Origin: Streptococcaceae bacterium | GTDB lineage: Bacteria > Bacillota > Bacilli > Lactobacillales > Streptococcaceae | Length of the DNA: 64,000 nucleotides | Assembly: GCA_031254115.1 (NCBI GenBank) | Contig: JAIRUZ010000027.1 | Span: forward strand, 2,214 to 66,213 | Reading direction: 5' to 3' | In this document: in pieces, positions 2-64,000 of the stretch | How positions within the stretch are numbered: position 1 is the stretch's first letter | Layout of the letters: the number at the start of each line of letters is the position of its first letter | Notes under the pieces: generated by a model | The model's database searches: none | The model's input: the letters and a program-made list of their open reading frames with translations, nothing else | Told to the model about the DNA's origin: nothing | Program-made: the position numbers and the translations under genes

Positions 2-421
2 GATTATCTGCAGCTTGACGACGGCGTGATGGCGGCTTATTTTCAAGCGTGGGGCGCGTCTAGCGACGCAATTCTCGCAGAGCTCGCGCAAAATGTCGTC
101 AATCGCCATCTTCTGAAATCTGTCAAACTTGCCGACACGACGACGGATATTCTGTCAGCCACGCACGCGTTAATCCCCAACGCCAGCTATTTTTCGGACG
201 TGCAAAACAGTTTTGATTTGCCGTACGACGACTACAACCCAGAAACCGAGCGCACGCCGATTGAGATTCTCACGGCTGACGGAAAATTAACTGAACTTTC
301 AACCTTATCGCCGCTTGTACGCGCGCTGACAGGCGAAAAATTTGGTGACTCACGCTTTTATTTCCCCAAAGAAATGCTCCAAAACACAGACTTTATGACT
401 AGAATGAGAGATTTTACATGA
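2..421 (+). CDS. C-terminal part of HD-domain phosphohydrolase (YwfO-like); 5' end outside window
   Basis: Open frame from window edge; C-terminal 'ELSTLSPLVRALTG...DSRFYFPKE' typical of this family; ATGA overlap with downstream HAD gene. Confidence 0.65.
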   Translation, partial: DYLQLDDGVMAAYFQAWGASSDAILAELAQNVVNRHLLKSVKLADTTTDILSATHALIPNASYFSDVQNSFDLPYDDYNPETERTPIEILTADGKLTELSTLSPLVRALTGEKFGDSRFYFPKEMLQNTDFMTRMRDFT

Positions 422-1227
422 TTAAACTGATTGCGATTGATATTGACGGAACGCTTGTTGACAATGAGCGCAAAATTACGCCCGAGGTGAAAGCCGCGGT
501 CAAAGATGCCACGGCTGCGGGCGTCAAGGTCGTGATTTCGACAGGTCGTCCCCTTCTTGGCGTGACCGAAATCTTAGACGAATTAGGCTTGAACAAAGCG
601 TCCGATTTTGTGATTACATTTAACGGCGCTCTGGTACAACGCGCGACGGGCGAAATTTTTGTCGAAGAGACGCTCACGCCAGATGATTTTTATGATTTGG
701 ATGCGGCCGCGAAAAAAGTGGGCGTTCATTTTCAGGCGCTGACGCGCGACGGTGTCTACACAAGCAATCGCGACATTGGCCGCTATACCGTTTACGAATC
801 CTATTCGAGTCATTCACCGCTGCATTTTCGCCAGCCCGAGGAAATCGCTGCGCTCGATCTCGCCAAAGTCATGATGATTGATGAGCCTAAAATTCTCGAC
901 AACGCAATCGCTTATCTGCCGTTCGAGTTCTTTGAGCGCTTTACCATGGTCAAATCCACGCCGTTTTTCCTCGAATTCATGAATAAAAAAGTCAGCAAAG
1001 GCATGGCTGTCGCGCAATTGGCCAAAAAGCTTTTCCTTGACACGGACGAGCTCATGGCGATTGGCGACGAAGAAAACGACCGCTCCATGCTCGAAGCCGT
1101 CGGAAATCCCGTCGTCATGGGAAATGGCAAGGAAGAGCTCAAAAAAATTGCCAAATATATTACCAAGCCCAACACCGAATCAGGCGTCGCTTATGCCATT
1201 CGCGAATGGGTTCTCAAAGATTATTAA
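418..1227 (+). CDS. Cof-type HAD-IIB sugar phosphatase (YidA-like)
   Basis: DIDGTL motif I, STGR motif II, SKG and GDEEND..ML motifs. Confidence 0.9.
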   Translation: MIKLIAIDIDGTLVDNERKITPEVKAAVKDATAAGVKVVISTGRPLLGVTEILDELGLNKASDFVITFNGALVQRATGEIFVEETLTPDDFYDLDAAAKKVGVHFQALTRDGVYTSNRDIGRYTVYESYSSHSPLHFRQPEEIAALDLAKVMMIDEPKILDNAIAYLPFEFFERFTMVKSTPFFLEFMNKKVSKGMAVAQLAKKLFLDTDELMAIGDEENDRSMLEAVGNPVVMGNGKEELKKIAKYITKPNTESGVAYAIREWVLKDY

Positions 1228-1485
1228 ATCTGTTTCATAACCCGTTTTGCTTTTGAAGACTAACTCAGCTTTGCGTTTATTTGCGATTTAGCGAAATCGA
1301 CAGCGTAGCGTAGCGAAGATACTCGGCGACGAACGAGGAAAACGTTGTTTTCCTCATCTGCAACCTTGAAGCGGTGCTTCAAGCGCCGAGCGCCAAAGCG
1401 TGGTTGAACGAAGAGCTGACTCTTGCGCTTTAGCGCTTAGAGGTCGCTTTCCCCTTTAGGGGCAAGCAGGGTTATGAAACAAGTC
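1227..1485. mobile_element. MITE-like repeat, long copy with terminal inverted repeats and internal hairpins
   Basis: TGTTTCATAACCC (1231-1243) ... GGGTTATGAAACA (1469-1481); TA on both flanks; homologous to 56061-56180. Confidence 0.75.
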
Positions 1486-1494
1486 TACTAAACA

Positions 1495-1881: not shown

Positions 1882-1987
1882 TTTTATTTCTCCAATTTCT
1901 TTATTTAATAACGCCTGATTGTCAGTTCTGACAGCACACAATCTAGCGAATGCCTTCTGTCAGATCTGACAGAAATTTCTACAACGC

Positions 1988-2925: not shown

Positions 2926-3132
2926 CATATTATATCATATTTCAGATAAAAAGCAAGCCAGAGCATTCTACTCTCACAGCCAAAGATCGACTGCGCTGAC
3001 AAGTAGCAAAAACGCCAAAATAACGCGCATAGATTGCAAGACCTGATTACTCTGATAGCTTTCTGTCAGACCTGACAGGGCTTTAACAGCAAACCATAAG
3101 ACAGCGGATGGAAAAGGTCCTCAAACTATTTA

Positions 3133-4817: not shown

Positions 4818-5744
4818 CTAAATCTTTTCTTCGTAAAAATCTTTCACGACGTAGCTACTTTCATGAATAGCGCGCGCTTCTGCCGCCAGTTGATGCGCAA
4901 TCGGACCCACATAGCGCGCCGAGACATGATTGAGAAGGAGGCGCTTGACGGCTGCCTCATTTGCAACTTCAGCCGCTTGTGCCGACGTTGAATGCCCGTG
5001 TTTCTTTGCCATTTTTGCTTCCTTGGCTTCGTAAGTCGCTTCATGAACCAACACATCGCTTCCCACAGCCAGGCGCACCGAACGCTCCGTTTTCCTTGTG
5101 TCCCCCAAAATCGTCACCACTTTGCCTGAAATATCTGCACCGATATAATCCGACGGCTTGAAAATTTTTCCGTCAAACCCAACCGCCTCGCCCGTTTTTA
5201 TTTTGCCAAAAAGCGGACCAAACGGTAAACCATCAGCTGCAAGCTTGTGCGCATCAAGCTCGCCCGTCTTGTCCGCTTGCACAACACGATATCCCAAACA
5301 GAAAATCGTGTGATCAAGCGGCTCTGCATAAACGCTGAAAGTCGCGTCCTCAAAAATTTTTCCGCCGTCAGCCAGCTCATGAAAATGAATCCGAAATTGC
5401 AAGCGCGTTTTTGACGCTGTCAGCGCTGACAACACATAATTTTTCAGCCCTACTGGTCCGTACATCTCCAAATCTGTCTGCCCTTCTTCTTCCGACGCCT
5501 GAAAATTACGGCTTGCCAAAAAACCGGGCAAGCCAAAAATGTGATCCCCGTGCAAATGCGTGATAAAAACTTTCGTGATTTTGCGCGGCCGCAACGTCGT
5601 GCGCAAAATCTGATGCTGCGTGCCCTCGCCGCAATCAAACAACCAAACTTCATTGCGCTCATCAAGCAGTTTCAGCGCCAAGCTCGACACATTGCGCGAT
5701 TTTGACGGCTGCCCCGCAGACGTCCCCAAAAATTGAATATCCAT
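4818..5744 (-). CDS. rnz: Ribonuclease Z
   Basis: [32 protein letters not shown] motifs. Confidence 0.95.
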
Positions 5745-5871
5745 TCTTCTCCAGTCACCTAAAAGCCATCAGTCCGCACGATCAACCGCAAACTGACAGC
5801 CGCCTTCTACCGATAGATTATATCATATTTTTCGAGCCCTTTTTAAGCTGTCAGCGCTGATAGTAGACAAA

Positions 5872-5901
5872 AAGACCTCTTGTCACTGCTGACAAGAGGT
5901 A
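5872..5901 (-). terminator. Terminator after pgmH whose stem contains TGTCA/TGACA half-sites
   Basis: ACCTCTTGTCA-CTGC-TGACAAGAGGT hairpin followed on minus strand by CTTTTT. Confidence 0.7.
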
Positions 5902-9990: not shown

Positions 9991-11283
9991 TTAATCCACA
10001 AATTCAAATTCAAATTTTTCAATGCGCACGAGATCACCGTCTTTGGCGCCGCGCGCACGAAGCGCTTCGTCAACGCCCATACCGCGCATCTGTCTGGCAA
10101 ATTTCATGACGGACTCGTCGTGATCCAGATTGGTCATCTTGTACAGCTTGACAAGCTTCTCGCCTTCAAGTCGGTATGCCCCGTCGTCGTCGCGGCTGAC
10201 AGAAAACGGCGCTTCGTCAGCCTCAAACGCGTACAACACCTCGTCTGTTTTTTCTAGTGCTTCGTACAAGGGGAATTCTGGCGTTGTCCCGAGCAATTCG
10301 GACGTTGCGCGCAAGAGTTCAGTCACGCCTGTTTTTGTCAGCGCTGACAGCTCAAAAATGGCGGGTGCATCAGCGCCCAATTTTTCACGAAAAGCAGCCA
10401 AATTCTCAGCACTTTCTGGCATGTCCATTTTATTGGCCACAATCAGCTGCGGACGCTCCATCAGCCGCAAATCGTAGCTTTCAAGCTCGTCATTGATGGT
10501 CACATAATCCGTGTACGGATCGCGCCCATCAGCCGCGGACATGTCAATCACGTGGAGCAAAACGCGCGTACGCTCAATGTGCTTGAGAAATTCGATGCCA
10601 AGCCCCATCCCAGAATGCGCGCCCTCGATGAGCCCAGGCATATCCGCGACAACAAAATCACGCATGTCAGGCATCTGCACCATGCCAATATTTGGCACAA
10701 GCGTCGTAAAATGATACGCGCCGATTTTCGGGCGCGCATTACTGACAACGGACAAAAGCGTTGATTTGCCAACACTCGGAAATCCGACAAGGCCAACGTC
10801 TGCAAGCACGCGCAGCTCAAGCAGTAATTCTTTTTCTTCGCCTGGCTCGCCATTTTCAGCAATTTCAGGCGCCGGATTTTTCCCCGTCGCAAAACGCATA
10901 TTGCCACGACCGCCACGACCGCCACGCGCGACACTAATCTCCTGATTTTTCGTCACCAAATCCGCGATAACAGCGCCCGTTTCATTGTCTCTAATCGTCG
11001 TGCCAAGCGGCACACTCACAATATAATCTTCGGATCCGCGGCCGTGCATGCCTTTGCGCATGCCATTTTCGCCCGGTTTCGCACGAAACATGCGATTGTA
11101 GCGAAAATCCATGAGCGTCGCAATCCCTTCGTCCACGCGGAAAATGACCGAGCCACCACGTCCACCGTCACCGCCTGCAGGACCGCCGTCTGGCACATAT
11201 TTTTCTCGCCGAAAGGCCACTGCACCGTCGCCGCCTTTGCCAGCTTTCACGCTGATTTTTGCTGTATCTAAAAATAAACTCAT
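9991..11283 (-). CDS. obgE: GTPase ObgE
   Basis: Gly-rich Obg fold, [23 protein letters not shown]-terminal OCT domain. Confidence 0.97.
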
Positions 11284-11312: not shown

Positions 11313-12068
11313 TTACGCCTTGTCATTTTCTGTTGCCACACTCCGATTGACGAAATCTTTAAAAAGTTGAAAATGTGCGGGAAAATCACGCCACATGTTT
11401 TCTGGATGCCATTGAACACCCAAAATCCGGCTATCAGCGCTGACAATCGCCTCAACAACGCCGTCTGGCGCGCTTGCGATTTCTGTCAGCGCTGACGGGA
11501 TCTCCTTGATCGCCTGATGATGGCGCGAATTGACCGCCGCTTCTTCCCCATAAATCGGCGTAAGCAGGCTGTCAGCCGCAATCGCAACGCGGTGCGTCGG
11601 ATGGCTGCCGTAAGCTGCCTGCGCATGTTTGATGGAGTTCCCTGGAAATTGCGCCGCGAGATCTTGATACAGCGTGCCGCCGAGCGCGACATTGATGACT
11701 TGCAGGCCGCGGCAAATGCCAAGAACAGGCTTTCCGGCAGTAACAGCCGCCGCAACGAGCGCTATCTCAAACGTATCGCGTTTGTAATTTGTGCGGCCGA
11801 GCCCAGGAATCGGCGATTCACCAAAAAATTGGGGGTCAATGTCAGCGCCGCCAGGAATAATCACGCCATCGACAAAACTCAAAATTTCCGCCGCCGTCGC
11901 GTCCGCGAGCGCCGTATTTTCTGGCAACGGCACGATAATAGGCAGTCCGCCTGCCGCAAAAATGGCTTCTTTCAGGTCGTTCGAGCCAAAATCAGCATGA
12001 TTTTGATTCAACACATCGCTCGCTTTGGGCAATTGATCCGCGCTAATCGCTATAATAGGTCTTTTCAT
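11313..12068 (-). CDS. Peptidase C26 / gamma-glutamyl-GABA hydrolase family glutamine amidotransferase
   Basis: [29 protein letters not shown]. Confidence 0.9.
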
Positions 12069-12153: not shown

Positions 12154-13350
12154 TTAGCTTGAGCTACTTGTGCTGCCTGACGTGCTTGACGCGCTCGTGC
12201 TACTTGTTGAATGAGACGCATCGTATTCGCTGGCGGCGTGTGCATAATCCACGCCCGCGGACTGCATGATAGAGCCAATTGCCGCTTCGCGGCTTGAAGA
12301 CGCAGCTGCCGAAGCTTGTCTGGAAGCGCCCGCAGGCGAATCATCCGCAAAATTTTTGTTGTAAGTCGTGGTGTTATTTGAGAAAATGCCAACTTCCATA
12401 TCGACCGTTTCAGGCGCGGTGAGGTGTTTTGCAATCGACGGATAATAGCCGAGTTTTTCTTTCATCTGCGACAGCGGTACCTTGACCGTGTTCTTGTCCG
12501 CCATCTGAAGCGTCAAAAAATCAGGCGTGGTTTGGCTTGGCTCGATTGTCACCGTGCGAATCAACTTTTTGAGCCCCGCCGTAAACGTCATGTACGCAGC
12601 GCCAAACGTGCGCGCTTGCGTGTCCGTGAAGTCTTTTAGGACAACGCTCGTTGCGGCAATTTTTTTGCTGTCAACCGCCTGATCATGCAGTATCACGCCA
12701 TTTTCAAGCAGCGTGTAATACTTATTTTTTTGGACGACATAGCCGACCGTTTGAAATTCTGTGATTTTCAGCACAATTTTATTTGGCGCGGAAATCTGCA
12801 AATCGGCGGCTTTGATGCGCGCCGAGCTATTGACGACGCGCGCTTCGATTTTGGATTTATTGAGCAAAAGGCTTGCAATGCTGTCACTTGTGCTGATTTT
12901 TGAGCTGCTCGCAACCGCACTTGCTTCAAGCGTCACATTGCCCGACACATTGAACTGACCCACTTTTGAAATCGGCAAAATGAAATACAGTGCGAGCAAA
13001 AAAGCAACGCTAAACACGACGAGCAGCGGCCACAAACGCTTTAACACGCGACCTGCGGGACGCAAAATCGGTAGCATTGTCGCGCTCCAAAAAGAGGCGT
13101 CAGTCGTTCGTCTTTGCTTTCTGTCAGCGCTGACAGATTTTCCATTACTTTCGCCGCCATTTTCGGCATCCTGTTTTTTTGTCAGCGCTGACAAATTTTT
13201 ATCAGACTTGTGCGCAAGTTTCAAGCCGCGCAAAAAAGCTGCGCGCTCTGCGCGCGCCTGCGTTTTTTGTTCTTCGCGCGCTTGGGCCGCTTGTTTTTCA
13301 AGCGCCTGTTGGTACGGCGATTTTTCGATTGTTTCTTTTTCGTCAGCCAT
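12154..13350 (-). CDS. divIB: Cell division protein DivIB/FtsQ with Ser-rich tail
   Basis: Charged N-terminus, single TM, POTRA-like region, VDMEVGIF motif; murD-murG-divIB order. Confidence 0.85.
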   Translation of the reverse strand: MADEKETIEKSPYQQALEKQAAQAREEQKTQARAERAAFLRGLKLAHKSDKNLSALTKKQDAENGGESNGKSVSADRKQRRTTDASFWSATMLPILRPAGRVLKRLWPLLVVFSVAFLLALYFILPISKVGQFNVSGNVTLEASAVASSSKISTSDSIASLLLNKSKIEARVVNSSARIKAADLQISAPNKIVLKITEFQTVGYVVQKNKYYTLLENGVILHDQAVDSKKIAATSVVLKDFTDTQARTFGAAYMTFTAGLKKLIRTVTIEPSQTTPDFLTLQMADKNTVKVPLSQMKEKLGYYPSIAKHLTAPETVDMEVGIFSNNTTTYNKNFADDSPAGASRQASAAASSSREAAIGSIMQSAGVDYAHAASEYDASHSTSSTSASSTSGSTSSSS

Positions 13351-14419: not shown

Positions 14420-15765
14420 TTTGCGCCTCGCAATGCTTCAAATGCGTCAATAAACAAGTCGCCGCGCTCCTCAAACGTTTTATATTGATCCCAGCTCGCG
14501 CACGCGGGCGACAAGAGAATCACGTCCCCTACATCAGATGCGGCAAATGCTTTTGTCAGCGCGTCATCGACTTTGTCAGCCCTGACAACGGGAATACCCA
14601 GTCTGTCAGCCGCAGACGCCAGCTTGTCAGCCGTCTCACCAACGACGACAAGGCCTTTGAGCCCTGACAGATTGTCAAACAACGCGTCAAAATCATTTCC
14701 GCGGTCAAGTCCGCCTGCAATCAGCCAGAGACTTTGGGCGTCAAAACCCGAAAGCGCATGCTGCGTCTCAACAATATTAGTTGCTTTTGAGTCGTTATAA
14801 ACTTTGCGGCCTGACAACTCGCCGAGATATTGATTGCGGTGTTTCACGCCTTTAAAAGTCGTCAAAACAGAAATAATCGCGGCGTTGTCTATGCCTTTGA
14901 TTTTTGCAACGGCAAGTGCAGCCAGTGCATTTTCAAGATAGGCGTCACCTGGCAGCGACAAATCAGAGACGCGCAGAATTTCCTCACCTTTGTAGAAAAT
15001 GACGCCGTCTTTTGAATACGCGCCATTGACCACCGAATCCGTCGCAAATGGCACAATCGTCGCCTTTGTCGTGAGCGCGCGCTGCTCAAGCTTTGGCTGA
15101 TTGAAATTCAACACCAAGAAATCATCCGCATTCATCGCCGCCTGAATGCGCCATTTCGCGTTTTCATACGCTTCTTGTGAGCCGTGCCAATCCAAATGCG
15201 CGCTGTAAAAATTGACAATAACGGCAATATGCGGGTGAAAATGCTGCGTGCCTTGCAGCTGAAAGCTCGAAAGCTCCATGACAATGTCGTCAGTCGCGCC
15301 AGCAGCACTTACCACTTCAGACGCTGGAAAACCAATATTTCCAGCGAGTTTGGGCGTACGTCCGCCAGCTGACAAAATATCCGCAATCAGCGTCGTTGTC
15401 GTCGTTTTTCCCGCCGTGCCCGTGATGCCAATAATCTCGGCTTCTGAAAGCTCCCACGCAAGCTCAACCTCTGTAATAACAGGAATTTCGCGGCGCAACG
15501 CTTCTGCAACCATGACATTGTCATAGCGAATGCCCGGATTTTTCACCAAAAGAGAAATCCCGTCATCAAACAGCGCCAGATCATGCTTTCCCGTGACAAC
15601 GCGCACATCAAGCGCTGAAAGACTGTCAGGAATGCCAGAATTTCCGCCGTCATTCACCGTGACAAGCGCGCCCAAATCATGCAGCACGCGCGCTGCTGCA
15701 ACGCCCGATTTGCCAAGTCCAAGCACAAGCACGCACCGTCCTTTATAATCCGTCTTTTGTTTCAT
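14416..15765 (-). CDS. murD: UDP-MurNAc-L-Ala:D-Glu ligase
   Basis: GLGKSG, NPGI, GITGTAGKTT, ELSSFQL, NDSKATN, SPACASWDQ. Confidence 0.97.
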   Translation of the reverse strand: MKQKTDYKGRCVLVLGLGKSGVAAARVLHDLGALVTVNDGGNSGIPDSLSALDVRVVTGKHDLALFDDGISLLVKNPGIRYDNVMVAEALRREIPVITEVELAWELSEAEIIGITGTAGKTTTTTLIADILSAGGRTPKLAGNIGFPASEVVSAAGATDDIVMELSSFQLQGTQHFHPHIAVIVNFYSAHLDWHGSQEAYENAKWRIQAAMNADDFLVLNFNQPKLEQRALTTKATIVPFATDSVVNGAYSKDGVIFYKGEEILRVSDLSLPGDAYLENALAALAVAKIKGIDNAAIISVLTTFKGVKHRNQYLGELSGRKVYNDSKATNIVETQHALSGFDAQSLWLIAGGLDRGNDFDALFDNLSGLKGLVVVGETADKLASAADRLGIPVVRADKVDDALTKAFAASDVGDVILLSPACASWDQYKTFEERGDLFIDAFEALRGAK

Positions 15766-45157: not shown

Positions 45158-45176
45158 GAGTTTCTCCTATAATTGA

Positions 45177-46524: not shown

Positions 46525-46536
46525 ACTCTTTTTCAG

Positions 46537-46791
46537 TCAAAAAATGGAATAATTTATCAGCATTTTAATACGCCCAGACTGGCTTACTATCTGACGGATA
46601 AAGTCCTGATTGGACTCACTATCTGTGACATCAAGCTTCAGCGCGTTGATATTTTTGCCAGTTGGTATTTTTTCAAGTCGCCTCGCTGCGGCGTAAACCA
46701 TCCAGCCTTTTTGAGCAAAAAGTTGTACTGCCGCGTAACCTAAGCCAGATGAGGCACCTGTGATTGCGATAACTTTTTCTGTAGAGTGCAT
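46537..46791 (-). pseudogene. N-terminal fragment of an SDR oxidoreductase
   Basis: ITGASSGLG, AARR, LDVTD; stops at GRIKMLIN just before NNAG; good SD. Confidence 0.8.
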
Positions 46792-46941
46792 TATTTTCTC
46801 CTTTTTGATATAATTAGTATATTCTTTTTATATCAATAAATCAAATAAATAAAAAGTCACAACCGAAGTTATGACTTTATACAAGAATTTAAGTTTCTTA
46901 TTTAGCTAATTTGCGTCGACGGGCGTGGCTCTCTTTAGGGA

Positions 46942-49433: not shown

Positions 49434-50222
49434 TTACTCACCAAAACCAGGCTTTTGCATTTCTTTGAAATAATCGGCGTGAATTTGAATTTCAGCGCCC
49501 GTGTCCAGTTTGAGTACGAGGCCCGAGCCGCTGGTGTATTCGCGCGCGATTCGCAGCGAGATGACCTCGTATTGTTTTGCTTCGCGGTCGATGTAAATGA
49601 GGGCTTTCGTAATTGGCAAGCCCAGATATTTGCGCAATTCTGTGGAGATTTCTTCCCCAAAAAGTCCCAGCTGCCCGCTGTCAGCTGCTACAAAATGTGC
49701 GCGCGGCTTATCCAATTCTTGTAAGCGCTGATAGAGCTTCGCCGTAATCAACACGTCGTTTAGCGCGTCGTGGCTGCGCAAATCAGACAGCCCTAAGTCT
49801 TTTTTCAGATTTGAAAGGGCATACGAGCGCGCTTTCATCAGCCGCTTCGCCTCTGACAGCGTGTCGTACACCTCAAAATGCGCAACACCTTGAATGCCGC
49901 AATCAATAATCGCCTGATTCAAAAAGCTCATGTCAAACGGCGCATTGTGCGCGACGAGTAAACAACCGCTGATAAACGCCAGAAAATCGGGCAGCACGGC
50001 AGAAATCATGGGCTGACTCGCGACATCAGCTGGCGAAATGCCTGTCAGTGCTGTGATTTCAGCGCTGACAAGACTTCGCACAGGCCGCAGCAATTGATTG
50101 ACACGCCCGAGCTCTTCGTGTGACACGCTGTCAAATTTTGCGGCACCAATCTGAATAATCTCGTTGAATTTAGGCGACAAACCTGTCGTCTCGAAATCCA
50201 AAACTACGTATTGCTCTGCCAT
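49434..50222 (-). CDS. DEDDh 3'-5' exonuclease (DnaQ-like) with extra C-terminal region
   Basis: LDFETTG, AHNAPFD, DTL, HDALND. Confidence 0.88.
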   Translation of the reverse strand: MAEQYVVLDFETTGLSPKFNEIIQIGAAKFDSVSHEELGRVNQLLRPVRSLVSAEITALTGISPADVASQPMISAVLPDFLAFISGCLLVAHNAPFDMSFLNQAIIDCGIQGVAHFEVYDTLSEAKRLMKARSYALSNLKKDLGLSDLRSHDALNDVLITAKLYQRLQELDKPRAHFVAADSGQLGLFGEEISTELRKYLGLPITKALIYIDREAKQYEVISLRIAREYTSGSGLVLKLDTGAEIQIHADYFKEMQKPGFGE

Positions 50223-50254: not shown

Positions 50255-52189
50255 TTAAAACACGCTATCTTCTTCAAGTGTAAATCGGACATTGCTTTCA
50301 ATCCATTTACGGCGCGGCGGAACCTTGTCGCCCATGAGCACGGACACACGTTTTTCGGCTTGCGCCGCGTCGTCAATTTGCACCTGAATGAGCGTGCGCG
50401 TTTCAGGATCCATTGTGGTTTCCCAAAGCTGATCCGCATTCATCTCGCCAAGTCCCTTGTAGCGCTGGAGCGCAGCACCGCGGCCAAATTTCTTGCGCAT
50501 TCTATCCAGTTCTGCATTCGTCCAAGCATAGGCGACTTTTTCTTTTTTTCCTTTGCCCTCGCTCATTTTGTAAAGCGGCGGTAAGGCAATGTACACGTGT
50601 CCCGCCTCGACGAGCGGTTTCATGTAGCGGTAAAAGAACGTCAGCAGCAAAATTTGAATGTGGCTACCGTCGTCGTCCGCGTCCGTCATGATGATGATTT
50701 TGTCATAGTTTCTGTCTTCAAGCGTAAAATCAGCACCCACACCCGCGCCAATCGTATAAATCATCGTGTTGATTTCTTCATTTTTGAGAATGTCGGCCAT
50801 TTTGGCTTTTTCGGTATTGATGACTTTACCGCGCAACGGCAAAATCGCTTGGAACTTGCGGTCGCGTCCCTGCTTGGCTGAGCCACCGGCAGAGTCACCC
50901 TCGACGAGATACAATTCATTTTTCGACGGATTTTTCGTCTGCGCGGGGGTCAATTTGCCTGACAAAAGTCCTTTGTCTTTTTTGGATTTTTTGCCATTTC
51001 TCGAATCCTCGCGCGCCTTACGCGCCGCCTCGCGCGCTTCACGCGCCTTGATGGCTTTGCGAATCAGATTTTGCGCCAATTCGCCATTTTCCATCAGATA
51101 AAAACTGAGTTTTTCAGCGACAATGCTGTCCACAATCGGGCGGGCAAGCGGCGAGCCAAGTTTATCTTTCGTCTGCCCTTCAAACTGCAAATGCTCCTCA
51201 GGCACAAGAATTGACAGCACCGCCGTCAACCCTTCACGGTAATCCGAGCCCTCGAGATTTTTGTCTTTTTCTTTCAAAAGCGCCGTTTTACGCGCGTAAT
51301 CGTTCATCGCTTTTGTCAGCGCTGACTTAAAGCCCGACTCGTGCGTTCCGCCGTCTTTCGTGCGCACATTGTTGACAAAACTGAGAAGATTTTCGGAATA
51401 GCCGTCGTTGTATTGCATCGCCACTTCCACCTCAAAATCGTCTTGCACGCCGTTGAAATACAATACAGGCGTCAGCGAATCTTTGTCTTCATTCAGATAG
51501 CTGACGAAATCCTGCACGCCATTTTCATAGTGAAACTGGTCTGATTGCCCATCACGCTTGTCTTCAAGCGAAATCGTCACATCTTTGAGCAAAAATGCGG
51601 ACTCATTGAGCCTCTCAGAAATAATCGCGTATTTGAAATCCGTCGTCGAGAAAATCGTCACGTCTGGCATAAACGTGACTTTCGTGCCCGTTTTATCCTT
51701 GGGCGCCGAGCCGATTTTTTTAAGACCTGTTGCAGGATGACCGCCATTTTCAAAACGCTGTTTGTAAATCGCGCCGTCGCGCGTGACCTCGACTTCGAGC
51801 CAGCTTGAGAGCGCATTGACAACGGATGAGCCCACACCGTGCAAGCCGCCAGACGTTTTGTAGCCGCCCTGTCCGAATTTTCCGCCCGCGTGCAAAATGG
51901 TAAAAATGACCTCGATTGTCGGCTTGCCGCTTGCGTGCATTCCCGTCGGCATGCCGCGCCCTTCGTCTTCGACCGTTAAACTACCATCCTCGTTAATCGT
52001 CACGCTAATTTTATTGCCAAAGCCGGAGAGCGCCTCGTCGACCGCATTGTCCACGATTTCCCAAACTAAATGATGAAGCCCTGTTGCGTCTGTCGAGCCA
52101 ATATACATGCCCGGCCGCTTTCTGACCGCATCAAGCCCCTCGAGAACCTGAATGCTGCTGTCGTCATAATTCATTATTTCTGTAACCAT
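50255..52189 (-). CDS. parE: Topoisomerase IV subunit B
   Basis: EIVDNAVDE, GLHGVG, EGDSAGG, PLRGK, QRYKGLGEM. Confidence 0.97.
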   Translation of the reverse strand: MVTEIMNYDDSSIQVLEGLDAVRKRPGMYIGSTDATGLHHLVWEIVDNAVDEALSGFGNKISVTINEDGSLTVEDEGRGMPTGMHASGKPTIEVIFTILHAGGKFGQGGYKTSGGLHGVGSSVVNALSSWLEVEVTRDGAIYKQRFENGGHPATGLKKIGSAPKDKTGTKVTFMPDVTIFSTTDFKYAIISERLNESAFLLKDVTISLEDKRDGQSDQFHYENGVQDFVSYLNEDKDSLTPVLYFNGVQDDFEVEVAMQYNDGYSENLLSFVNNVRTKDGGTHESGFKSALTKAMNDYARKTALLKEKDKNLEGSDYREGLTAVLSILVPEEHLQFEGQTKDKLGSPLARPIVDSIVAEKLSFYLMENGELAQNLIRKAIKAREAREAARKAREDSRNGKKSKKDKGLLSGKLTPAQTKNPSKNELYLVEGDSAGGSAKQGRDRKFQAILPLRGKVINTEKAKMADILKNEEINTMIYTIGAGVGADFTLEDRNYDKIIIMTDADDDGSHIQILLLTFFYRYMKPLVEAGHVYIALPPLYKMSEGKGKKEKVAYAWTNAELDRMRKKFGRGAALQRYKGLGEMNADQLWETTMDPETRTLIQVQIDDAAQAEKRVSVLMGDKVPPRRKWIESNVRFTLEEDSVF

Positions 52190-52299: not shown

Positions 52300-53256
52300 A
52301 TGGTAAAAACACTTTATATGGTGCTCCCGTGCTACAACGAAGAGCTGGTCATTGGCGAAACGTCAAAACGCCTGTCTGAAAAATTTGACCGTCTTCTGTC
52401 AGCTGGCGTGATTTCGGCTGACAGCCGCATTTGTTTTGTCAATGACGGCTCAAAAGACGCGACGTGGGAAAAAATCGCGGCGCTGCATTCTGTCAGCCCT
52501 GACAGATTTTCTGGCATCAATTTGTCGCGCAATCGCGGCCATCAAAATGCGCTTTTGGCTGGGCTGATGACGGTCAAAGACGTGCCTGGCGTAGATTGCG
52601 TGATTTCCATGGACGCGGATCTTCAAGACGATATTGATGCGATTGACGGCATGCTCGAAAAATTTGAAGCAGGCGTTGAGGTCGTATACGGGGTGCGTGA
52701 CAATCGCGACACTGACACGGGCTTTAAGCGCGGGACTGCGGGGCTTTTCTACAAGCTGATGAAATCGCTCGGCTCTGAATCCGTGCCAAATTCAGCTGAT
52801 TTTCGCCTGATGAGCAGACGCGCGCTTGACGGACTTGCCGAATTTGGCGAAGTGAATCTCTTTTTGCGCGGCATGGTGCCGCTCATCGGCTTCAAATCTG
52901 ACATCGTCTACTACAAACGCGGCGAGCGCTTTGCTGGCGAATCCAAATATCCATTCAAAAAAATGTTGTCATTTGCGCTTGACGGCATCACGTCCATGTC
53001 CGCGACGCCCATGCGACTGATTTTCTGGTCGGGGCTGCTCATGTTTCTCATAGCCGTCATCTCTGGGCTCTGGGTGCTGCTCAGTCATTTCATTGGCCAC
53101 ACCGCGGCCGGCTGGTCTTCTCTTGCCGTTCTCATCGTCGCTTTTGGCGGCTTGCAACTCTTAGCTATTGGCATTATCGGCGAATATATCGGGAAAATAT
53201 TCCTTGAAGTCAAAGCGCGCCCGCGCTATCTCATCCAAGATTTTCTCAATAAATAA
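52300..53256 (+). CDS. GT2 polyprenol-phosphate glycosyltransferase (GtrB-like)
   Basis: PCYNE, NDGSKD, DADLQD, DFRLMSR, two C-terminal TMs, GEYIGKI..EVKARP. Confidence 0.92.
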   Translation: MVKTLYMVLPCYNEELVIGETSKRLSEKFDRLLSAGVISADSRICFVNDGSKDATWEKIAALHSVSPDRFSGINLSRNRGHQNALLAGLMTVKDVPGVDCVISMDADLQDDIDAIDGMLEKFEAGVEVVYGVRDNRDTDTGFKRGTAGLFYKLMKSLGSESVPNSADFRLMSRRALDGLAEFGEVNLFLRGMVPLIGFKSDIVYYKRGERFAGESKYPFKKMLSFALDGITSMSATPMRLIFWSGLLMFLIAVISGLWVLLSHFIGHTAAGWSSLAVLIVAFGGLQLLAIGIIGEYIGKIFLEVKARPRYLIQDFLNK

Positions 53257-54394: not shown

Positions 54395-54451
54395 AAACCT
54401 GTCAGTTTCGTACGCTGAGCTGTGCTCAGGAGAAAATGCTCTGACAGGTTT
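54395..54451. repeat. Hairpin repeat element, inverted copy of 59799-59851
   Basis: AAACCTGTCAG...CTGACAGGTTT with inner CTGAGC/GCTCAG stem. Confidence 0.75.
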
Positions 54452-57598: not shown

Positions 57599-59442
57599 TT
57601 GCTCGTTTCTCCTTGTAATTGTTTTTTGAGTGCGACGATATCAATCGTCAATCTGAGGACCTTTTCGCTGTCAGAGAGCTGCTGCGCGGCTGTAAGCTCG
57701 CGACCCGCCGCTTCTATTTTTTGCTGAATCGCGGCTTTTGCGAGACTTTCGGTCAGCTCCAAAATTTCTCGGTCTGTCACAATTTCTGGCAAATCAAGAG
57801 CCAAAATCACCAACATTTTCCCGCGAAGTGGCTCAGGGAGCGTCAGGGCAAACTCTGTCCAATCCGTGACGTGCGAGAGTTGCGCGTTAATTATTTTTCC
57901 GAACAAGTGTTGATAGTCCGTATGAATGAAACTCGGCGCACCGTTTTTCTCGAGCATATCAATCAACTCTGGCTTTTTTGTCAGCCGCGAGAGGAGCTGC
58001 TGCTCAAGCCGCTCGCCGCCTGCAAGCGGCGCAATGAACGCTTCTTGTGCCTCAGGTTGTTCTTGCGGCCACGCCTGCGGCGCGTCGAGTTCTGAAAACG
58101 TATCATAGTACCTGTCAGCCGCTCTATCAGTTCTGTCAGCGCTGACAGAACCTGAATTTCGATACTGATTGACCGCTTTTTCGACCTGATCGTACTCAAA
58201 ATCTGGCAACAGCTCTGTTAGCCGCTTGACATAAACATCTTGAGCCGCAAGGCTCATTTCATGCGCGATAATCGGTGCAAGCTGCCCCAGAAAATCAACT
58301 TGCGTGTCCACCGTGCTCAGATTTTCTGGGCGCAGATAAGCCATCAAAAATTCGCTGCGGCTGATCCGCGTGGTGCCAAGAAGCGCGCGAAGCGCGTCAA
58401 TTCCCTGCGTGCGCTGATAATCGTCAGGGTCTTTTCCATCAGGAATTTTGACAATTGCAACCTCGCGATTCTCTAACAATGCGAGCGCCTTGTAAATTGC
58501 GGCCTGACCTGCAGCGTCGCCGTCATACACGAGCACAAATTTTTGCGCGAGCCGGCTCAATCGCTTGACGTGCTTTTCTGTCAGCGCAGTTCCCATGCTC
58601 GCGACCGCATTGTCAACGCCCGCACGATGCGCGGCAATCACGTCCATGAAGCCTTCCATGAGAACGACTTCGTGCATTTTTGCAATGGAGGCACGCGCTT
58701 TATCAAAATTCCAGAGCTCAAAGGATTTATCAAAAATCTTTGTCGCGCTCGTGTTGACATATTTGCCTTGGCGCGTATCGCCCTCTTGCCAAATCCGCCC
58801 CGAGAAACCGACTGTTTGCCCATATTGATTGCGAATCGGGAACATCAGTCGATTCTGAAACGTATCAAATACTTTGGAGCGACTAAAGTTGAACAAACCA
58901 CTGTCAGCCAGCACGCTTTCGTCAAATGTGACAGACAGATTTTGATACAAAAAATCGTCATTGTCAGGCGCGAGCCCGATTTCGTAGCGTTTAATCGTGT
59001 CCTCATCAATGCCACGCGCTGACAGATACGCGTGCGCCGCAACGCCTGCCTGCGTTGACGTGAGAATCATGTGATACATGCGCGCCGCTTGATTATTGAT
59101 GTCAAACAACGCACGATTCGGGTCATCTTCCTGCGTCTCGCCCATTTTGTCAAAGCTGACAGAAATTCCCGCCATTTCCGCGACCTGCGCGAGTGCCGCT
59201 TGAAAATCAACCGTCTGAGAATCTTGGATGAATTGGAACACATCACCCGATTTTCCGCAGCCGAAGCAATGATAGAAGCCTTTTTCCGCATTGACGCTGA
59301 AACTTGGCGTTTTTTCCCCGTGAAAGGGACACAGCCCCAAATAATTGCGCCCTTGCTTCTTGAGCTGTACCACTTGGCCTACCACGTCAAGAATCGAGAC
59401 GCGCGACTTTATCTCAGCAATTTCTTCTTTAGTGACTGCCAT
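57595..59442 (-). CDS. dnaG: DNA primase
   Basis: CPFH...CFGC zinc finger, FSGR, EGFMDV, YDGD, KDPD. Confidence 0.97.
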
Positions 59443-59798: not shown

Positions 59799-59851
59799 AT
59801 CTGTCAGCGGTATTTCTCCTGAGCACAGCTCGGTGTGCGAAACTGACAGAT
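59799..59851. repeat. Hairpin repeat element in the tRNA spacer
   Basis: ATCTGTCAG...CTGACAGAT; interior nearly identical to reverse complement of 54395-54451. Confidence 0.75.
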
Positions 59852-61219: not shown

Positions 61220-61333
61220 AAGTCTATTATACCATAATTCGCGCCATTCCCCCAGCGTTTCCAAAGAACTAAAAGCCTGTTTGGAACACGAAAAGCGAGA
61301 CATTTGACTCGCTTATTTTTTAGATTCGTTGCT

Positions 61334-62047
61334 TCAGATTCTTTTGCTGATAAATTTCTCGAGTGGCTCTTTTTCTTTGTCAAATTTTTCAACGCGATCA
61401 GACCAGCGTTTCAAGAGAACAGGCGCACCCGTGATTTCATAACGTCTGCAAATTAATTGCAAATCAGGTGACAATTTCAAATTTTCCATGTCCACATAAT
61501 ACAGTTTGACAGCGGAAAGTTCGGCCGCAAGCTCACGACTATCAAGATCAGTCACCTTGCCAAAGAAAACAAGCGAACTTTCAGGCAAAAAATCAAGGTC
61601 GCGCGCGCTGATGAGTTGTGCGTTTTTGAGTGCGTTGAAATACCCGCCAATCATCTCATCTGTCAGCCCGTGCGTCAAGCGCTGACCACTGACCGCAAAT
61701 TGATTGCCGTCAAGGTCAAAAAAGCTAAAGGTATAATCTTCGCCAAGCGGCATAATCTCGCTGACACGCTTCGTTTCCTTTGAGATTTCTTCATACGCCT
61801 TGTCAATATCATCTGTCGAAAACAAAATATTGGCGTTAATCGTCTGAATGCCTGGGTTCGTGCGTTCAATGTAGTCGATTTCATAAAGCTGAATGCTGAC
61901 ATTGCCGAAATCATAGCCCGAGAGCAGCACCGACATACTGTTTTCAAGCGGAATCGTCGCGAGTTCATCAAAGCCAATCGCCGTCCAAAAATTCATGGCA
62001 CGACGTACATTTTTCACATAAAGCATGAGTGTCATGCCGTTTATCAT
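61334..62047 (-). CDS. VOC/glyoxalase domain fused to a degenerate thioredoxin-like domain
   Basis: MLYVKN..RAMNFW..IGF and FSFFDLDGNQF (VOC); LVFFGKVT...LYYVD...YEITGAPVLL (Trx-like, no CxxC). Confidence 0.65.
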   Translation of the reverse strand: MINGMTLMLYVKNVRRAMNFWTAIGFDELATIPLENSMSVLLSGYDFGNVSIQLYEIDYIERTNPGIQTINANILFSTDDIDKAYEEISKETKRVSEIMPLGEDYTFSFFDLDGNQFAVSGQRLTHGLTDEMIGGYFNALKNAQLISARDLDFLPESSLVFFGKVTDLDSRELAAELSAVKLYYVDMENLKLSPDLQLICRRYEITGAPVLLKRWSDRVEKFDKEKEPLEKFISKRI

Positions 62048-62069
62048 AAGTTTAGCTCCTCTTATTCAT

Positions 62070-64000
62070 TCAATTTTGTTGTTTGCGGCGTTTGAGTGAC
62101 GCGACTGTCAGCGCTGACAAGATAAGCGTGCTGCCAAGCGTTTCAAGCGCCAATTCACCAGATGTGTCGCCCGTTTCTGGGAGCGCTTTGTTAGCTGACG
62201 ACGCCGTTTTTGAGGTGTTATTTGCGCGCACAATTGTCGCAGACGCTGTTTTTGATTTCACCTGAAAATCAGTGGCGCTTGCAGGCGCTTGCGGCGTCGT
62301 TTGGCCGACGAGTGTGCCTGCTGAAACGCCTGATGGAATCACTTTCGCGCTGTCAGCTGACGACGCAATCTCTGCCAATGTTTGAGACGTGCTGCCAGAC
62401 TCGGATACAAAATTTATTGCTGCAGCCGTTGTCGAAAGCACTTGAGCAAACGCGTAATTTGCTTTCAACGTATGTCCGCTGAGACCTGTGCCGTTAAAAC
62501 TGAGTGTCACCGTCGTGTTTCCGTAGCCATTATTGTCCAGCGTAAACGTGCTTGACGCTTGCGTGACGGCATTTCCTGTCATCTGATCAATCAGCGTCAC
62601 TGTTACCTTTTGAGTGGTGCCCGCTTGCGCTTTCGCGTTATTGATAGTGACGAGATTAAAGGCTAATTGGCCCGGCGCCGCGCTAAAGCCGTTGGTCTGA
62701 TACGCGCCGACAAGTGTGGCTTGCGCAGACGCAACATTGACGGTCGTCGTTACGGTCGCGCTCTTGCCCGTCACAGGATCCACGTAAGAATACGTCAACA
62801 CGTAGCTGCCTGACTGTGACATATTGACAGCCGAGCTGTCAACGCTCACATTGGACGGATTACCTGTCGTGCCATCCGAGTTTGTGACGGAAACTAGGCC
62901 TGCTGACGCGTTTAAGCTGTAGCCTACCCACGTGTCAATTTCTTGCGTGAGAAGCGTTGCGACCCCTGCGGCAGGTGTGCTGCCAAGCAATGTCTGATAA
63001 GCTGCAAGCGCATTGCTATACGCAGCTGTCGCCGAAGACAGATTGGTCGTCAAGCTCGCCTGCAACGTGAGTGCCGCGCTATTTTTTGAAGTATACGAAG
63101 CATACGCACTTGAGTTGACATATTCAAAAATCATATTGGGCAATGGCTTTGTTGCGGGATTGCTCGTCGCACTTGCCATTGAAATAGCCGCATTGTAAGA
63201 CGCATTGTTTGTATAACCGGGACCTTCCATGGCAACAAACAGGTCGTAGCCTGTGCCCGTATTTGCAGACGAAAGCACACTCAGCGCCTCATAGCTCTGC
63301 ATGTAAAGCAAATTCGCGCGGTGACCGTAATGGTCGACGCCTAGAGATTCTGGATTGTCGCTCTCATCGTACCAATCCATCAACAGATAATACGCAACTT
63401 CCTGATCCGATAGCATTTGATCAGTGATACCGCCGTTTGCGGAAATATTTTCAGCATGCGTGCCCGCTTGATCGTGGCTAAAATCAGAAATAATCTGCGC
63501 CGCACGCGTATTTGCAAACGCTTGTAGGCTCGCGACGTCGCTCGCCAAGCTGCCAGAATAGCCCGCCGTTGTGCCATTTGCGTACAAAATCGCTGGCTGA
63601 CCGTTGAGCGCGCGAAGCTGATTCAAATCTGCCAAGAAATAGCTGTTAATCGCCGCTTGATTGGGCACATAAGAGCTTGCTGGCATTGGTAAAACAACGA
63701 CTTCAGAGCTTGAAAAACTCGTTGAAGCAAATAAATCCGTTGCACTCGTTTGCCCATTTGCGCTAAATTTTGTCAAATCTTGCGTGGCGACGGCTGACAA
63801 ATTCACTTGAGCGGCGCTCAGACTTGCAAGCTGCGACTGATTGAGCGCAAGTGCTGACGTTGCCGAAGCCACTGCTGAGCTTGCGCTTGCAACAGCTGAA
63901 CTTGCCGCTGACAGCTGATTGACCGACTGGCTCGTCGTGCTGACAGCCGCCGATGTGACCGTTTGTACAGCAGGCTCTGAGCTTGAAGCTGACAAGACCT
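62070..64000 (-). CDS. LPXTG-anchored surface protein with CAP/SCP-like and Ig-like domains; 5' end outside window
   Basis: LNQLRA, DFSH, AENI, GHRANLL (CAP); VDSSAVN...GSYVLTYS (Ig-like); LPETG + TM + KRRK. Confidence 0.85.
   Translation of the reverse strand, partial: VLSASSSEPAVQTVTSAAVSTTSQSVNQLSAASSAVASASSAVASATSALALNQSQLASLSAAQVNLSAVATQDLTKFSANGQTSATDLFASTSFSSSEVVVLPMPASSYVPNQAAINSYFLADLNQLRALNGQPAILYANGTTAGYSGSLASDVASLQAFANTRAAQIISDFSHDQAGTHAENISANGGITDQMLSDQEVAYYLLMDWYDESDNPESLGVDHYGHRANLLYMQSYEALSVLSSANTGTGYDLFVAMEGPGYTNNASYNAAISMASATSNPATKPLPNMIFEYVNSSAYASYTSKNSAALTLQASLTTNLSSATAAYSNALAAYQTLLGSTPAAGVATLLTQEIDTWVGYSLNASAGLVSVTNSDGTTGNPSNVSVDSSAVNMSQSGSYVLTYSYVDPVTGKSATVTTTVNVASAQATLVGAYQTNGFSAAPGQLAFNLVTINNAKAQAGTTQKVTVTLIDQMTGNAVTQASSTFTLDNNGYGNTTVTLSFNGTGLSGHTLKANYAFAQVLSTTAAAINFVSESGSTSQTLAEIASSADSAKVIPSGVSAGTLVGQTTPQAPASATDFQVKSKTASATIVRANNTSKTASSANKALPETGDTSGELALETLGSTLILSALTVASLKRRKQQN

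Follow-up and report, generated by a model that had tools for sequence, protein, structure and literature searches.

A highly repetitive motif, WWNTTACTGACRR, was reportedly described in Lactococcus lactis by Mrazek, Gaynon and Karlin in 2002 (NAR 30:4216). The L. lactis motif was recovered again as gtcagtaa/ttactgac and is missing from foreign genes (PMC2526093), and the USS of Pasteurellaceae and the DUS of Neisseriaceae are likewise missing from foreign genes (PMC2817400). For HIP1, recent work points to a link with natural transformation (bioRxiv 10.1101/2024.09.10.611283; PMC13756078). Here, we consider the dyad TGTCAG-NN-CTGACA, which is best explained as the form that a hyperabundant word, shared by a Lactococcus-like clade of Streptococcaceae, takes in one species, i.e., a dialect.

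The genome analysed (G000) is a 1.42-Mb, 76% complete MAG of a termite-gut Streptococcaceae relative of Lactococcus, in which gene calls are crude stop-to-stop ORFs. The dyad occurs 447 times genome-wide, in 333 cases in the CG-centred form TGTCAGCGCTGACA; ~2,300 solo half-sites and degenerate dyads with one (221) or two (171) mismatches are also present. In k-mer counts, no 8-, 10- or 12-mers of the genome are commoner than the dyad and half-site words. In full, the unit spans 20 bp and reads as the palindrome TTCTGTCAG-CG-CTGACAGAA, with a centre of strictly 2 bp and the flank consensus T-Y...R-A; further out, beyond 20 bp, the sequence is random. The inner TCAG/CTGA is nearly invariant across single-mismatch variants. 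Long-range spacing of the dyads is Poisson-like (CV 1.12), without regularity.

In the window, i.e., the whole 64-kb stretch of DNA analysed, all 13 exact dyads listed in the earlier note (seven CG-centred, six with other spacers) were found in place (Table 1), and none of 100 dinucleotide-preserving shuffles produced a dyad. Five of its six one-mismatch copies (5849, 11432, 11484, 47833 and 51314) were likewise present, while the sixth, at 8797, carries two mismatches. One-mismatch copies beyond that list start at 5881, 50057 and 59148. The coding frames reported earlier were correct, with LSALT encoded in rnz, obg, divIB and the YceD/DUF177 gene, and VSAD-type peptides in divIB and dnaG. Further examples are LSALT in the LPXTG protein, and VSAD-type frames in parC, murD and the GT2 gene.

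Table 1. Copies of the word and associated features in the 64-kb window.
Feature	Position	Context
Exact dyad, spacer TT	1920..1933	rplT (L20) ORF, VSAD-type frame
Exact dyad, spacer AT	1958..1971	Outside crude ORFs; complete TTC...GAA flanks
Exact dyad, spacer AC	3064..3077	Outside crude ORFs
Exact CG dyad	5418..5431	rnz (tRNase Z-like), LSALT; orthologs MTALK/MNSLK, ungapped
One-mismatch copy (mismatch at position 13)	5849..5862	
One-mismatch copy	5881..5894	Tip of terminator-like hairpin 3' of rnz
Exact CG dyad	10336..10349	obg, LSALT
One-mismatch copy	11432..11445	Glutamine amidotransferase-type gene, VSAD frame
One-mismatch copy	11484..11497	SALT frame; 52 bp after 11432 copy
Exact CG dyad	13122..13135	divIB, VSAD
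Exact CG dyad	13180..13193	divIB, LSALT; 58 bp after 13122 copy
Exact dyad, spacer CC	14574..14587	murD (VRAD), inside phased half-site cluster
Exact CG dyad	18491..18504	YceD/DUF177 gene, LSALT
Low-GC (38%) carbohydrate-use island	20401..46900	3 GH31, 2 LacI, ABC binding protein, MFS, PTS-Gat, RpiR
Variant dyad CCGTCAGATCTGACGG	36475	Within island
Exact dyad, spacer TG	47079..47092	VSTD in parC/gyrA-type topoisomerase subunit A; first copy past island
One-mismatch copy	47833..47846	parC (SELT)
One-mismatch copy	50057..50070	VSAE
One-mismatch copy	51314..51327	parE/gyrB-type subunit B (SALT)
Exact dyad, spacer CC	52491..52504	GT2 glycosyltransferase gene (VSPD)
49-bp hairpin element	54399..54447	Two half-sites form outer stem (CTGTCAG...CTGACAG)
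Exact CG dyad, complete 20-bp palindrome	58134..58147	dnaG (VSAD); ssDNA hairpin -8.1 kcal/mol
One-mismatch copy	59148..59161	dnaG
49-bp hairpin element, second copy	59801..59849	Inverted
Exact CG dyad	62106..62119	LPXTG surface-protein gene (LSALT)

All 13 dyads lie in the window backbone (1-20400 and 46901-64000), where half-sites reach 2.9/kb; the carbohydrate-use island contains no exact dyads and 0.30 half-sites/kb. The variant dyad reported at 36475 is present. The near-absence from the island that the earlier note had claimed persisted after a 0.44-fold GC correction (Poisson P = 0.018 for exact dyads, 0.0015 with up to one mismatch, and 0.008 with up to two). Genome-wide, dyad density is 0.55-0.67/kb in the backbone and 0-0.1/kb in DNA of less than 40% GC. 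Equal density in acquired DNA, which had been named as grounds for refutation, was thus rejected, the density in low-GC DNA being 5-10 times lower. The word is missing or nearly so from recently acquired DNA, and is confined to resident DNA.

Dyads inside ORFs (82% of the total) are restricted to two frames and distributed uniformly along genes. LSALT is the commonest pentapeptide in the proteome (n = 212), and the exact word encodes 187 of the 212 occurrences; among SALT peptides, it is used in 230 of 268. The other refutation test named earlier, a within-gene synonymous-codon shuffle, yielded 4.3 expected versus 365 observed dyads. The use of two frames as well as spacers, the predominance of the exact word among LSALT codings, and an enrichment that survives synonymous shuffling thus support a constraint acting on DNA, not protein. 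Ortholog alignments spanning the sites are gap-free, with residues replaced and none added, and the conserved obg peptide [IV]S[AG]LT was recoded to the word in G000 and, independently, in G070. The word arises via point substitution (synonymous recoding and conservative amino-acid changes) in long-resident DNA, not via insertion, and is near saturation at positions that proteins can tolerate. A palindrome of 14-20 bp, written hundreds of times into the genome's own genes, has reshaped host proteins. Since sites common to different lineages are partly due to pre-adapted peptides, site sharing alone does not prove conservation by selection.

The distances between neighbouring sites follow a period of 10.3-10.5 bp; against frame-preserving jitter, the period was 10.3-10.4 bp (z = 185). 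The phasing is present for distances that are multiples of 3 and for those that are not, extends over more than 100 bp with a minimum spacing of 20-21 bp, and was replicated in 400 kb of DNA from genus g9; Leu-Thr dipeptides with other codons, tested in the same respect, showed none. Neighbouring copies thus sit on one helical face. The strict 2-bp centre, the 20-bp palindrome, and the ~10.4-bp phasing on one face support the dimeric-protein-site geometry suggested earlier.

The same data bear on whether the word might be a repeat of mobile or structural type (MITE, REP/RAYT-type element, or hairpin element at the RNA level) or else a peptide under selection. A few small elements do end in half-sites: the 49-bp hairpin occurs three times, and G083 has a 60-bp tandem repeat of this kind. 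However, flanks are random beyond 20 bp, residues in gap-free orthologs are replaced rather than added, and no Y1/RAYT transposase was found in G000, G081, G085, G073 or G061. A selected peptide is excluded by the two frames and exclusive codon use, and the phasing is that of duplex DNA. Contradicted on all these points, this explanation was rejected as hardly credible.

In genus g9, which is Lactococcus-like, four species carry 705, 494, 376 and 349 dyads, with TA, TG or CA centres and flanks as in G000, while three other species (genomes G073, G061 and G013) use a half-site form, TTACTGACAG, in 824, 541 and 344 copies. In genus g5, 0-1 copy per genome was found (245 genomes), and most congeners are also essentially without the word; the distribution is patchy, with loss inside genera. 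The earlier view of the word as a lineage-specific form of the CTGACRR motif known from L. lactis is supported, as the same arms and flanks, with a TA centre, are hyperabundant in several g9 species and TTACTGACAG matches the published motif (PMC2526093).

The searches made revealed no reader or driver gene for the word. ComEC does not track the motif, being also present in motif-free relatives, and thus the competence machinery does not account for the patchy distribution. Gram-positive DNA uptake is regarded as sequence-independent, which counts against an uptake-linked reading, and we know of no uptake bias or receptor in any Gram-positive bacterium. No extra ParB/Noc-like gene was found, and ParB does not track the motif. 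C5 (PF00145) and Dam-type (PF02086) methylases were not detected; the sole N6/N4 methylase is a type III Mod, whose R-M operon is without the word. The methylase results argue against a by-product of biased repair, whereby a methyltransferase and short-patch repair or conversion bias would regenerate a functionless word, as once proposed for HIP1. While AGCGCT and AGTACT, the hexamers at the centre, resemble typical targets of methylases and restriction enzymes, and HIP1 has been linked to orphan methylases (PMC4390886), the strongest constraint falls on the arms TCAG/CTGA, not on the centre, and neither 14-20 bp specificity nor helical phasing is a property of patch repair. We consider such an origin very improbable.

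Third-codon GC skew drops across the sites, the orientation-free left-minus-right GC3 skew being +0.05 at 0.5-2 kb. Compared with the GC-matched expectation, G000 shows an excess of +0.036 (z = 6.9), and G083, G081 and G085 excesses of +0.15, +0.12 and +0.07, respectively; a general correlation of the statistic with local GC in G000 (r = 0.29) confounds the step, which is absent in G070. In co-oriented gene runs, the GC3 skew of the coding strand falls from high values upstream of a site to low ones downstream, and solo half-sites show the same step. It is absent within ±200 bp of a site, and is positioned ~200 bp downstream of the symmetric site, a pattern that would not be expected from a simple 3'-tail model or from uptake. 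As a source of the step, some strand-asymmetric DNA transaction (recombination, uptake, or a polar block) is indicated no less than static architecture. Of the earlier interpretation, the DNA constraint, the lineage variant, and the dimeric-site geometry are supported; a chromosome-organising or self-marking role may be regarded as a candidate.

A polar block, with protein-bound sites or hairpins acting as bidirectional transcription attenuators or replication pause sites, would generate the step through unequal strand exposure. The fall of coding-strand skew along co-oriented runs agrees with this, as does the clustering of non-ORF copies 4-13 nt past stop codons; of the 82 dyads outside ORFs, 18 sit at the tip of terminator-like A-run/stem/T-run hairpins (also a parallel to uptake signals), and in L. 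lactis 19% of genes are followed by the word, which was linked to mRNA decay (PMC2526093). Yet blocking at the uniformly spread intragenic sites, 82% of the total, would truncate essential transcripts, the hairpins are weak (-2.6 to -8.1 kcal/mol), and solo half-sites, which are unable to fold, give the same step. Accumulation and dialects would also be left unexplained, and we regard a polar block as distinctly unlikely.

A purely architectural array, in which a nucleoid-associated or nucleoid-occlusion-like dimer (cf. Noc/NBS, SlmA/SBS) would mark and bridge the resident chromosome under weak selection, with no recombination or uptake link, appears rather unlikely. Dyad symmetry, the 20-bp footprint, and same-face phasing over more than 100 bp fit co-operative or looping binding, and the central step is pyrimidine-purine in both dialects. 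Also counted in its favour are the absence, to our knowledge, of Noc and Min from Streptococcaceae and the similarity of the core of the word to the E. coli SlmA site and the symmetric lac operator, from which it differs by one symmetric base. However, ~450-1000 sites per 1.4 Mb are ten times denser than known occlusion or partition arrays, near-saturation of codable positions and amino-acid changes are hard to achieve via per-site selection alone, and the silent-site skew step requires a strand-asymmetric process. The lack of an extra ParB/Noc-like gene and the patchy loss inside genera also speak against a core architectural role.

By analogy with DUS, USS and HIP1, the best reading appears to be a protein-read DNA word. 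We propose, with moderate confidence, a DNA-level, putatively protein-read signal with drifting dialects, which anchors a strand-asymmetric DNA transaction. A candidate reader would be a dimeric, sequence-specific protein that recognises the word as double-stranded DNA and binds co-operatively or bridges sites; drift of its specificity among lineages may have produced the dialects (CG centre, TA centre, half-site only). The anchored transaction would most likely be recombination- or transformation-linked processing that exposes a strand with its 3' end pointing at the site. The word may build up by drive or weak per-site selection, as proposed for DUS, USS and HIP1.

The 14-bp dyad, with its central pyrimidine-purine step and TGT...ACA ends, resembles operators bound by dimeric helix-turn-helix proteins (LacI/CcpA cre, SlmA SBS, PadR/LexA TGT-N8-ACA), and the CG dialect fits the cre consensus, TGWNANCGNTNWCA, letter for letter. 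Unlike such operators, the word occurs in hundreds of mostly intragenic copies with no apparent regulon logic; hinge helices of the LacI type do not accept the TA centre found in the sister dialect, and the distribution of the word is patchy, in contrast to that of the universal CcpA. Like HIP1 (GCGATCGC) and other cyanobacterial highly iterated palindromes, it is a lineage-specific, long unexplained palindrome that runs through genes in several frames. HIP1, however, is 8 bp long and lies inside methylase sites, whereas the present unit is 14-20 bp, with no matching methylase found; HIP1 shows 10-90-kb periodicity (PMC5861425), whereas here the long-range distribution is Poisson, with a 10.4-bp helical repeat instead. 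DUS and USS have a similar density (~one per 1.5-3 kb), come about within genes through substitution, in frames that are tolerated, distort peptide frequencies, are absent from recently acquired genes, and have terminator-hairpin copies and dialects in related species (PMC2817400, PMC3630211). They are asymmetric, in contrast to the strict palindrome seen here, inter-site helical phasing is not described for them, and their proteome distortion (roughly doubled tripeptides) is far weaker than one pentapeptide occurring 212 times. As to the L. lactis motif, the available accounts do not describe helical phasing or a skew step; its copies lie downstream of genes, whereas 82% of ours are intragenic, and our host belongs to a termite-gut genus that is uncultured and has 47% GC. 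The G000 word joins two half-sites at an invariable 2-bp CG centre to give a perfect palindrome of 14-20 bp, and shares with the L. lactis motif the core CTGACRR and following A-rich flank, hyperabundance, and near-absence from phage, prophage and transposon genes.

The word TGTCAG-NN-CTGACA (the dyad) occurs in 13 exact copies in the window, all of them where the earlier note had located them; none appeared in 100 dinucleotide-preserving shuffles. Five of the six one-mismatch copies claimed there were correct, while the sixth, at 8797, differs at two positions; three additional one-mismatch copies were found (see table). Pfam agreed with the host genes that had been named, identifying tRNase Z-like, Obg, DivIB, MurD, YceD/DUF177, DnaG, and topoisomerase subunits. 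The genome to which the window belongs (G000, a termite-gut Streptococcaceae MAG of 1,420,991 bp in 74 contigs, 46.7% GC) is 76% complete, and its ORF calls are crude; a search of sequencing runs found the stretch only in a termite-gut metagenome run, which is probably the source of the MAG, and listed no RNA run containing it. In total, G000 contains 447 dyads, 333 of them with CG at the centre (the 2 bp between the arms), as well as 3,654 half-sites (single arms, CTGACA or its complement). Near neighbours of the perfect 14-mer TGTCAGCGCTGACA number 221 with one mismatch and 171 with two. The most frequent 8-, 10-, and 12-mers of G000 all come from the motif. In ~2,300 extra CTGACA half-sites the partner arm is at chance level, yet they have the local context of the dyads.

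Coordinates of features discussed in the text.
Feature	Location	Strand	Description
Additional one-mismatch copies of the dyad	window 5881, 50057, 59148
Low-GC island	window 20401-46900		carbohydrate-use island, 38% GC
Hairpin element	window 54399-54447, 59801-59849; G000 C50:4217		49 bp; outer stem made of two motif half-sites; three near-identical copies
GC-alternating word GCGCGC/CGCGCG	window 13240-13263 (example)
Dispersed small intergenic element	window 1414-1465		~50 bp; shared within the genus; dozens of copies 88-95% identical in G005, few in G002
RpoD, primary sigma factor	window 56180-57598	-	472 aa; N-terminal IF2_N match (residues 4-52, E = 4.5e-6) before region 1.1
Type III R-M operon (L111)	G000 C29:8158-13911		275-aa trypsin-like peptidase ORF (33.6% GC) between mod and res
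comEC	G000 C10:45-416, C8:5-295		split over contig ends; probably one gene broken by assembly
Intergenic tandem repeat of G083	L089:6200-6420		60 bp; three units, one full 20-bp motif copy in each

The arms of the dyad are strictly 2 bp apart: 447 pairs in G000 have this spacing, 27 have 0 bp, and every other spacing accounts for three or fewer. A left-hand T-Y and a right-hand R-A extend the consensus to a palindrome of ~20 bp whose right-hand part reads CTGACA-R-A-a. Since the flanks are random outside these ~20 bp, the word is not part of a longer repeat. The inner TCAG/CTGA is nearly invariant in single-mismatch variants, the outer two positions change by transitions only, and the centre changes mainly to AG/CT. 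Hairpin energies of the word are modest (-2.6 to -8.1 kcal/mol). A second over-represented word, the GC-alternating GCGCGC/CGCGCG, occurs ~1,500 times in G000, about six times the composition expectation, and has no single extended context.

Crude ORFs of G000 hold 365 dyads (82% of copies), 77 more are outside ORFs, and 23% of the ORFs carry at least one. Only the two frames without an internal TGA are used, encoding xSxLT (252 dyads) and VSxD (113). No pentapeptide is more frequent in the G000 proteome than LSALT, with 212 copies (the next unrelated one has 37), and 187 of the LSALT copies are encoded by the exact word. When synonymous codons were shuffled within each gene, 4.3 dyads were obtained in place of the 365 observed. 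The earlier note had placed the constraint on DNA or RNA and not on protein; the use of two frames and of spacers, the encoding of LSALT by the exact word, and the outcome of the synonymous shuffle all support a constraint on DNA.

When orthologs from five congeners and from other relatives were aligned, no gaps appeared at the sites, where it is the residues that differ. The rnz site reads VLSALTAS in G000 and VMTALKIS in orthologs, and divIB orthologs have unrelated residues. The conserved Obg peptide [IV]S[AG]LT is encoded by scattered codons in ten relatives; its codons were changed to the word independently in two genomes, G000 and G070, the latter from the Lactococcus-like genus g9. An origin as a MITE or other insertion element was rejected on account of these gap-free alignments and the randomness of the flanks beyond 20 bp. 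Dyads are spread uniformly along genes, while many of those outside ORFs begin 4-13 nt past a stop codon, and 18 of 82 cap terminator-like hairpins. In a cross-lineage test, 7 of 43 sites were shared with G000, a figure confounded by pre-adapted peptides, and we therefore claim no selection from it.

As claimed, the word is nearly missing from the island of the window, where half-site density falls from 2.9/kb to 0.30/kb; the deficit persists after correction for composition (P = 0.0015-0.018). Genome-wide, copies with up to two mismatches occur at 0.55-0.67/kb in DNA of 46-52% GC, compared with 0-0.1/kb below 40% GC. G000 has two long motif-free islands, that of the window and one on contig C29. 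The word can also serve as a practical marker separating native from acquired DNA in these genomes. We conclude that it is a DNA-level word, made by substitution, near saturation, and confined to resident DNA. Mobile-element, RNA-only, and peptide readings of the word are contradicted.

The distribution of the dyad was surveyed in 300 Streptococcaceae genomes. It is essentially missing from genus g5 (zero or one copy per genome in 245 genomes). In the deep genus of the window, in which orthologs share just 65-80% DNA identity, G000 is followed by G002 with 37 dyads and G003 with 19, the remaining genomes having zero or one. In g9, the dyad is hyperabundant in G083 (705 copies), G070 (494), G081 (376), and G085 (349), while several species have none. 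Samples of 100 kb from each of these four genomes (36-39% GC) gave the consensus TTCTGTCAG-TA-CTGACAGAA; at this sample size, the sites are limited in number and partly dependent on one another. The regions sampled from G081 and G085 are non-syntenic. Arms, flanks, and the two coding frames are identical to those of G000, whereas the centres are TA, TG, or CA. Three other g9 genomes have a half-site form, with few dyads and 344-824 copies of TTACTGACAG, which is the word described from L. lactis. The obg genes of g9 are 73-78% identical at the DNA level to that of Lactococcus fujiensis. No alternative iterated word was found in samples of the motif-free genomes G001 and G021, and a literature search for the exact words returned nothing relevant. 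The word has dialects in the Lactococcus-like clade, and two physical signatures, same-face phasing and an associated silent-site skew step, go with it.

The long-range spacing of sites in G000 is near Poisson (CV 1.12). At short range, distances between same-strand half-sites peak at 21, 30, 42, 51, 63, 72, 84, 93, 105, and 114 bp, and inverted and everted pairs share this register. Measured from one implied dyad centre to another, the distances have a dominant period of 10.3-10.4 bp, which is stronger than the codon period, is equal for distances divisible and not divisible by three, and has a power 185 SD above that of a jitter preserving the reading frame. Leu-Thr dipeptides encoded by other codons have no 3.5-residue periodicity, so the phasing is not an alpha-helix effect. 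The g9 samples repeat it, peaking at 20-21, 30-32, 41, and 51 bp. Such a pattern would be expected of a protein that binds one face of the duplex co-operatively or with looping, and a purely architectural binding array stands as a rival to the readings developed below.

Strand composition around the sites was followed with a statistic that is independent of strand choice, the difference in GC skew between the left and right sides of a site. In G000, it steps by +0.02 to +0.03 at all positions and by +0.05 at third codon positions at distances of 0.5-2 kb; it is ~0 inside 200 bp and past 4 kb, and AT skew has the opposite sign. This polarity means that, of the two strands, the one whose 5'-to-3' direction leads into the site is G/T-rich. 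The step remains in co-oriented flanks and is thus not due to gene orientation. At random G000 positions, the third-position statistic tracks local GC (r = 0.29), even within co-oriented gene runs; this correlation is weaker in G001 (r = 0.20) and not seen in G021. GCGCGC and other GC-rich words also gave a positive statistic, one fully accounted for by the GC trend. For G000 dyads, the statistic lies 0.036 above the GC-matched expectation (z = 6.9); the corresponding surplus is 0.15 in G083, 0.12 in G081, and 0.07 in G085, and G070, with its relaxed centres, has none. Solo half-sites behave like dyads. When oriented by transcription, the GC3 skew of the coding strand starts at 0.14-0.18 upstream, stays at 0.14 within +-200 bp, and drops to 0.04-0.07 at +200 to +3000, against a baseline of 0.11-0.12. 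A sawtooth in the raw skew close to the site was dropped, as it was not seen within +-200 bp.

The observed polarity would fit any of several processes: 3' tails ending at the site (at a break or a Chi-like stop), 3'-first entry of donor strands cut there, convergent synthesis, or transcription meeting a polar block. The 200-bp offset is predicted by neither a simple 3'-tail model nor an uptake model. The polar block, and likewise biased repair, stand as rivals.

Several candidates for a protein that reads or drives the word were considered. HIP1-type palindromes are associated with orphan methyltransferases that recognise their core. No match to C5 methylases (PF00145) or Dam-type methylases (PF02086) was found in this 76% complete MAG, where the sole N6/N4-type candidate is a type III Mod. 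The corresponding R-M operon has zero dyads, and its res gene no half-sites, which makes the operon likely recent. A REP/RAYT element, with a Y1 transposase as driver, was rejected, since copies of the word are mostly intragenic and PF01797 was not found in G000 and most motif-rich genomes. Each g9 genome has one canonical ParB and no extra ParB/Noc-like gene, and ComEC is present nearly everywhere, in motif-rich and motif-free genomes alike. The densest motif clusters of G000 lie in unrelated genes and indicate no single locus. Nothing found among these candidates (methylases, type III R-M, RAYT, ParB, ComEC) tracks the word. A cre/LacI operator is a 14-bp dyad with an obligatory CG at its centre, placed at regulated promoters. 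G000 has seven LacI-family genes, and the CG dialect fits this consensus, but the TA centre of the sister dialect led us to abandon the idea, most sites also being intragenic. The GlnR/TnrA-type spacing TGTNA-N7-TNACA occurs only three times in G000. A polar word of the Chi/KOPS type, which is short, asymmetric, and strongly biased to the leading strand, was rejected, as the G000 word is palindromic and just 58% of solo half-sites are on the inferred leading strand.

We infer that the word has a dimeric sequence-specific reader and that a drive or weak selection, like that of DUS, USS, and HIP1, lies behind it, probably with a link to recombination or transformation. A more specific reading, which we advance as a rather unlikely one, is that the word is the first sequence-specific recombination/uptake signal in Gram-positives: a dimeric reader would bind the 20-bp palindrome in incoming or resident DNA, and processing would start there to yield single strands 3'-ended at the word, which would both spread it and leave the skew step. 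Helical phasing and the skew step, both measurable, constrain the mechanism. Some relatives are culturable and tractable (competence can be induced in L. lactis and L. cremoris), so reader and function are directly testable.

Few non-coding signals of bacterial genomes are as strong as hyperabundant short words, of which DUS, USS, HIP1, and, since 2002, the motif of L. lactis are examples; to our knowledge, only DUS among them has a known reader. DUS and USS are characterised by preferential uptake of DNA that bears them and by a dedicated receptor (a ComP-type minor pilin or an equivalent). Like DUS and USS, the G000 word has accumulated by substitution in resident genes, is absent from new genes, and skews peptide frequencies; like HIP1, it is a hyperabundant palindrome found in more than one reading frame. 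By analogy, its function may resemble that of uptake sequences and HIP1. As summarized in a passage of PMC2526093, which cites Mrazek 2002, the L. lactis word is gtcagtaa/ttactgac and lies downstream of 19% of genes; the same passage describes it as missing from phage and transposon genes (PMC2526093). The G000 word matches the Lactococcus CTGACRR family in its core and A-rich 3' flank, in its copy number per genome (hundreds to thousands), and in its near absence from foreign and mobile DNA. The earlier proposal that it is a lineage variant of this family is upheld by the right-hand flank in G000, by the shared arms and flanks in g9, and by the half-site form of the three further g9 genomes. 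The L. lactis motif is an asymmetric 13-mer found mainly downstream of genes, whereas the G000 word is a fixed palindrome, mostly within ORFs; its non-ORF copies, directly past stop codons, retain the likeness. The unexplained L. lactis word is thus one member of a family that spans a clade and has dialects; where the word takes the form of a perfect 20-bp palindrome, its strength is such that LSALT outnumbers every other pentapeptide of a proteome. Among known objects, the highly repetitive motif of L. lactis comes nearest, and the G000 word is a dialect of it that is palindromic, centred on CG, and mostly located inside genes, in a new host.
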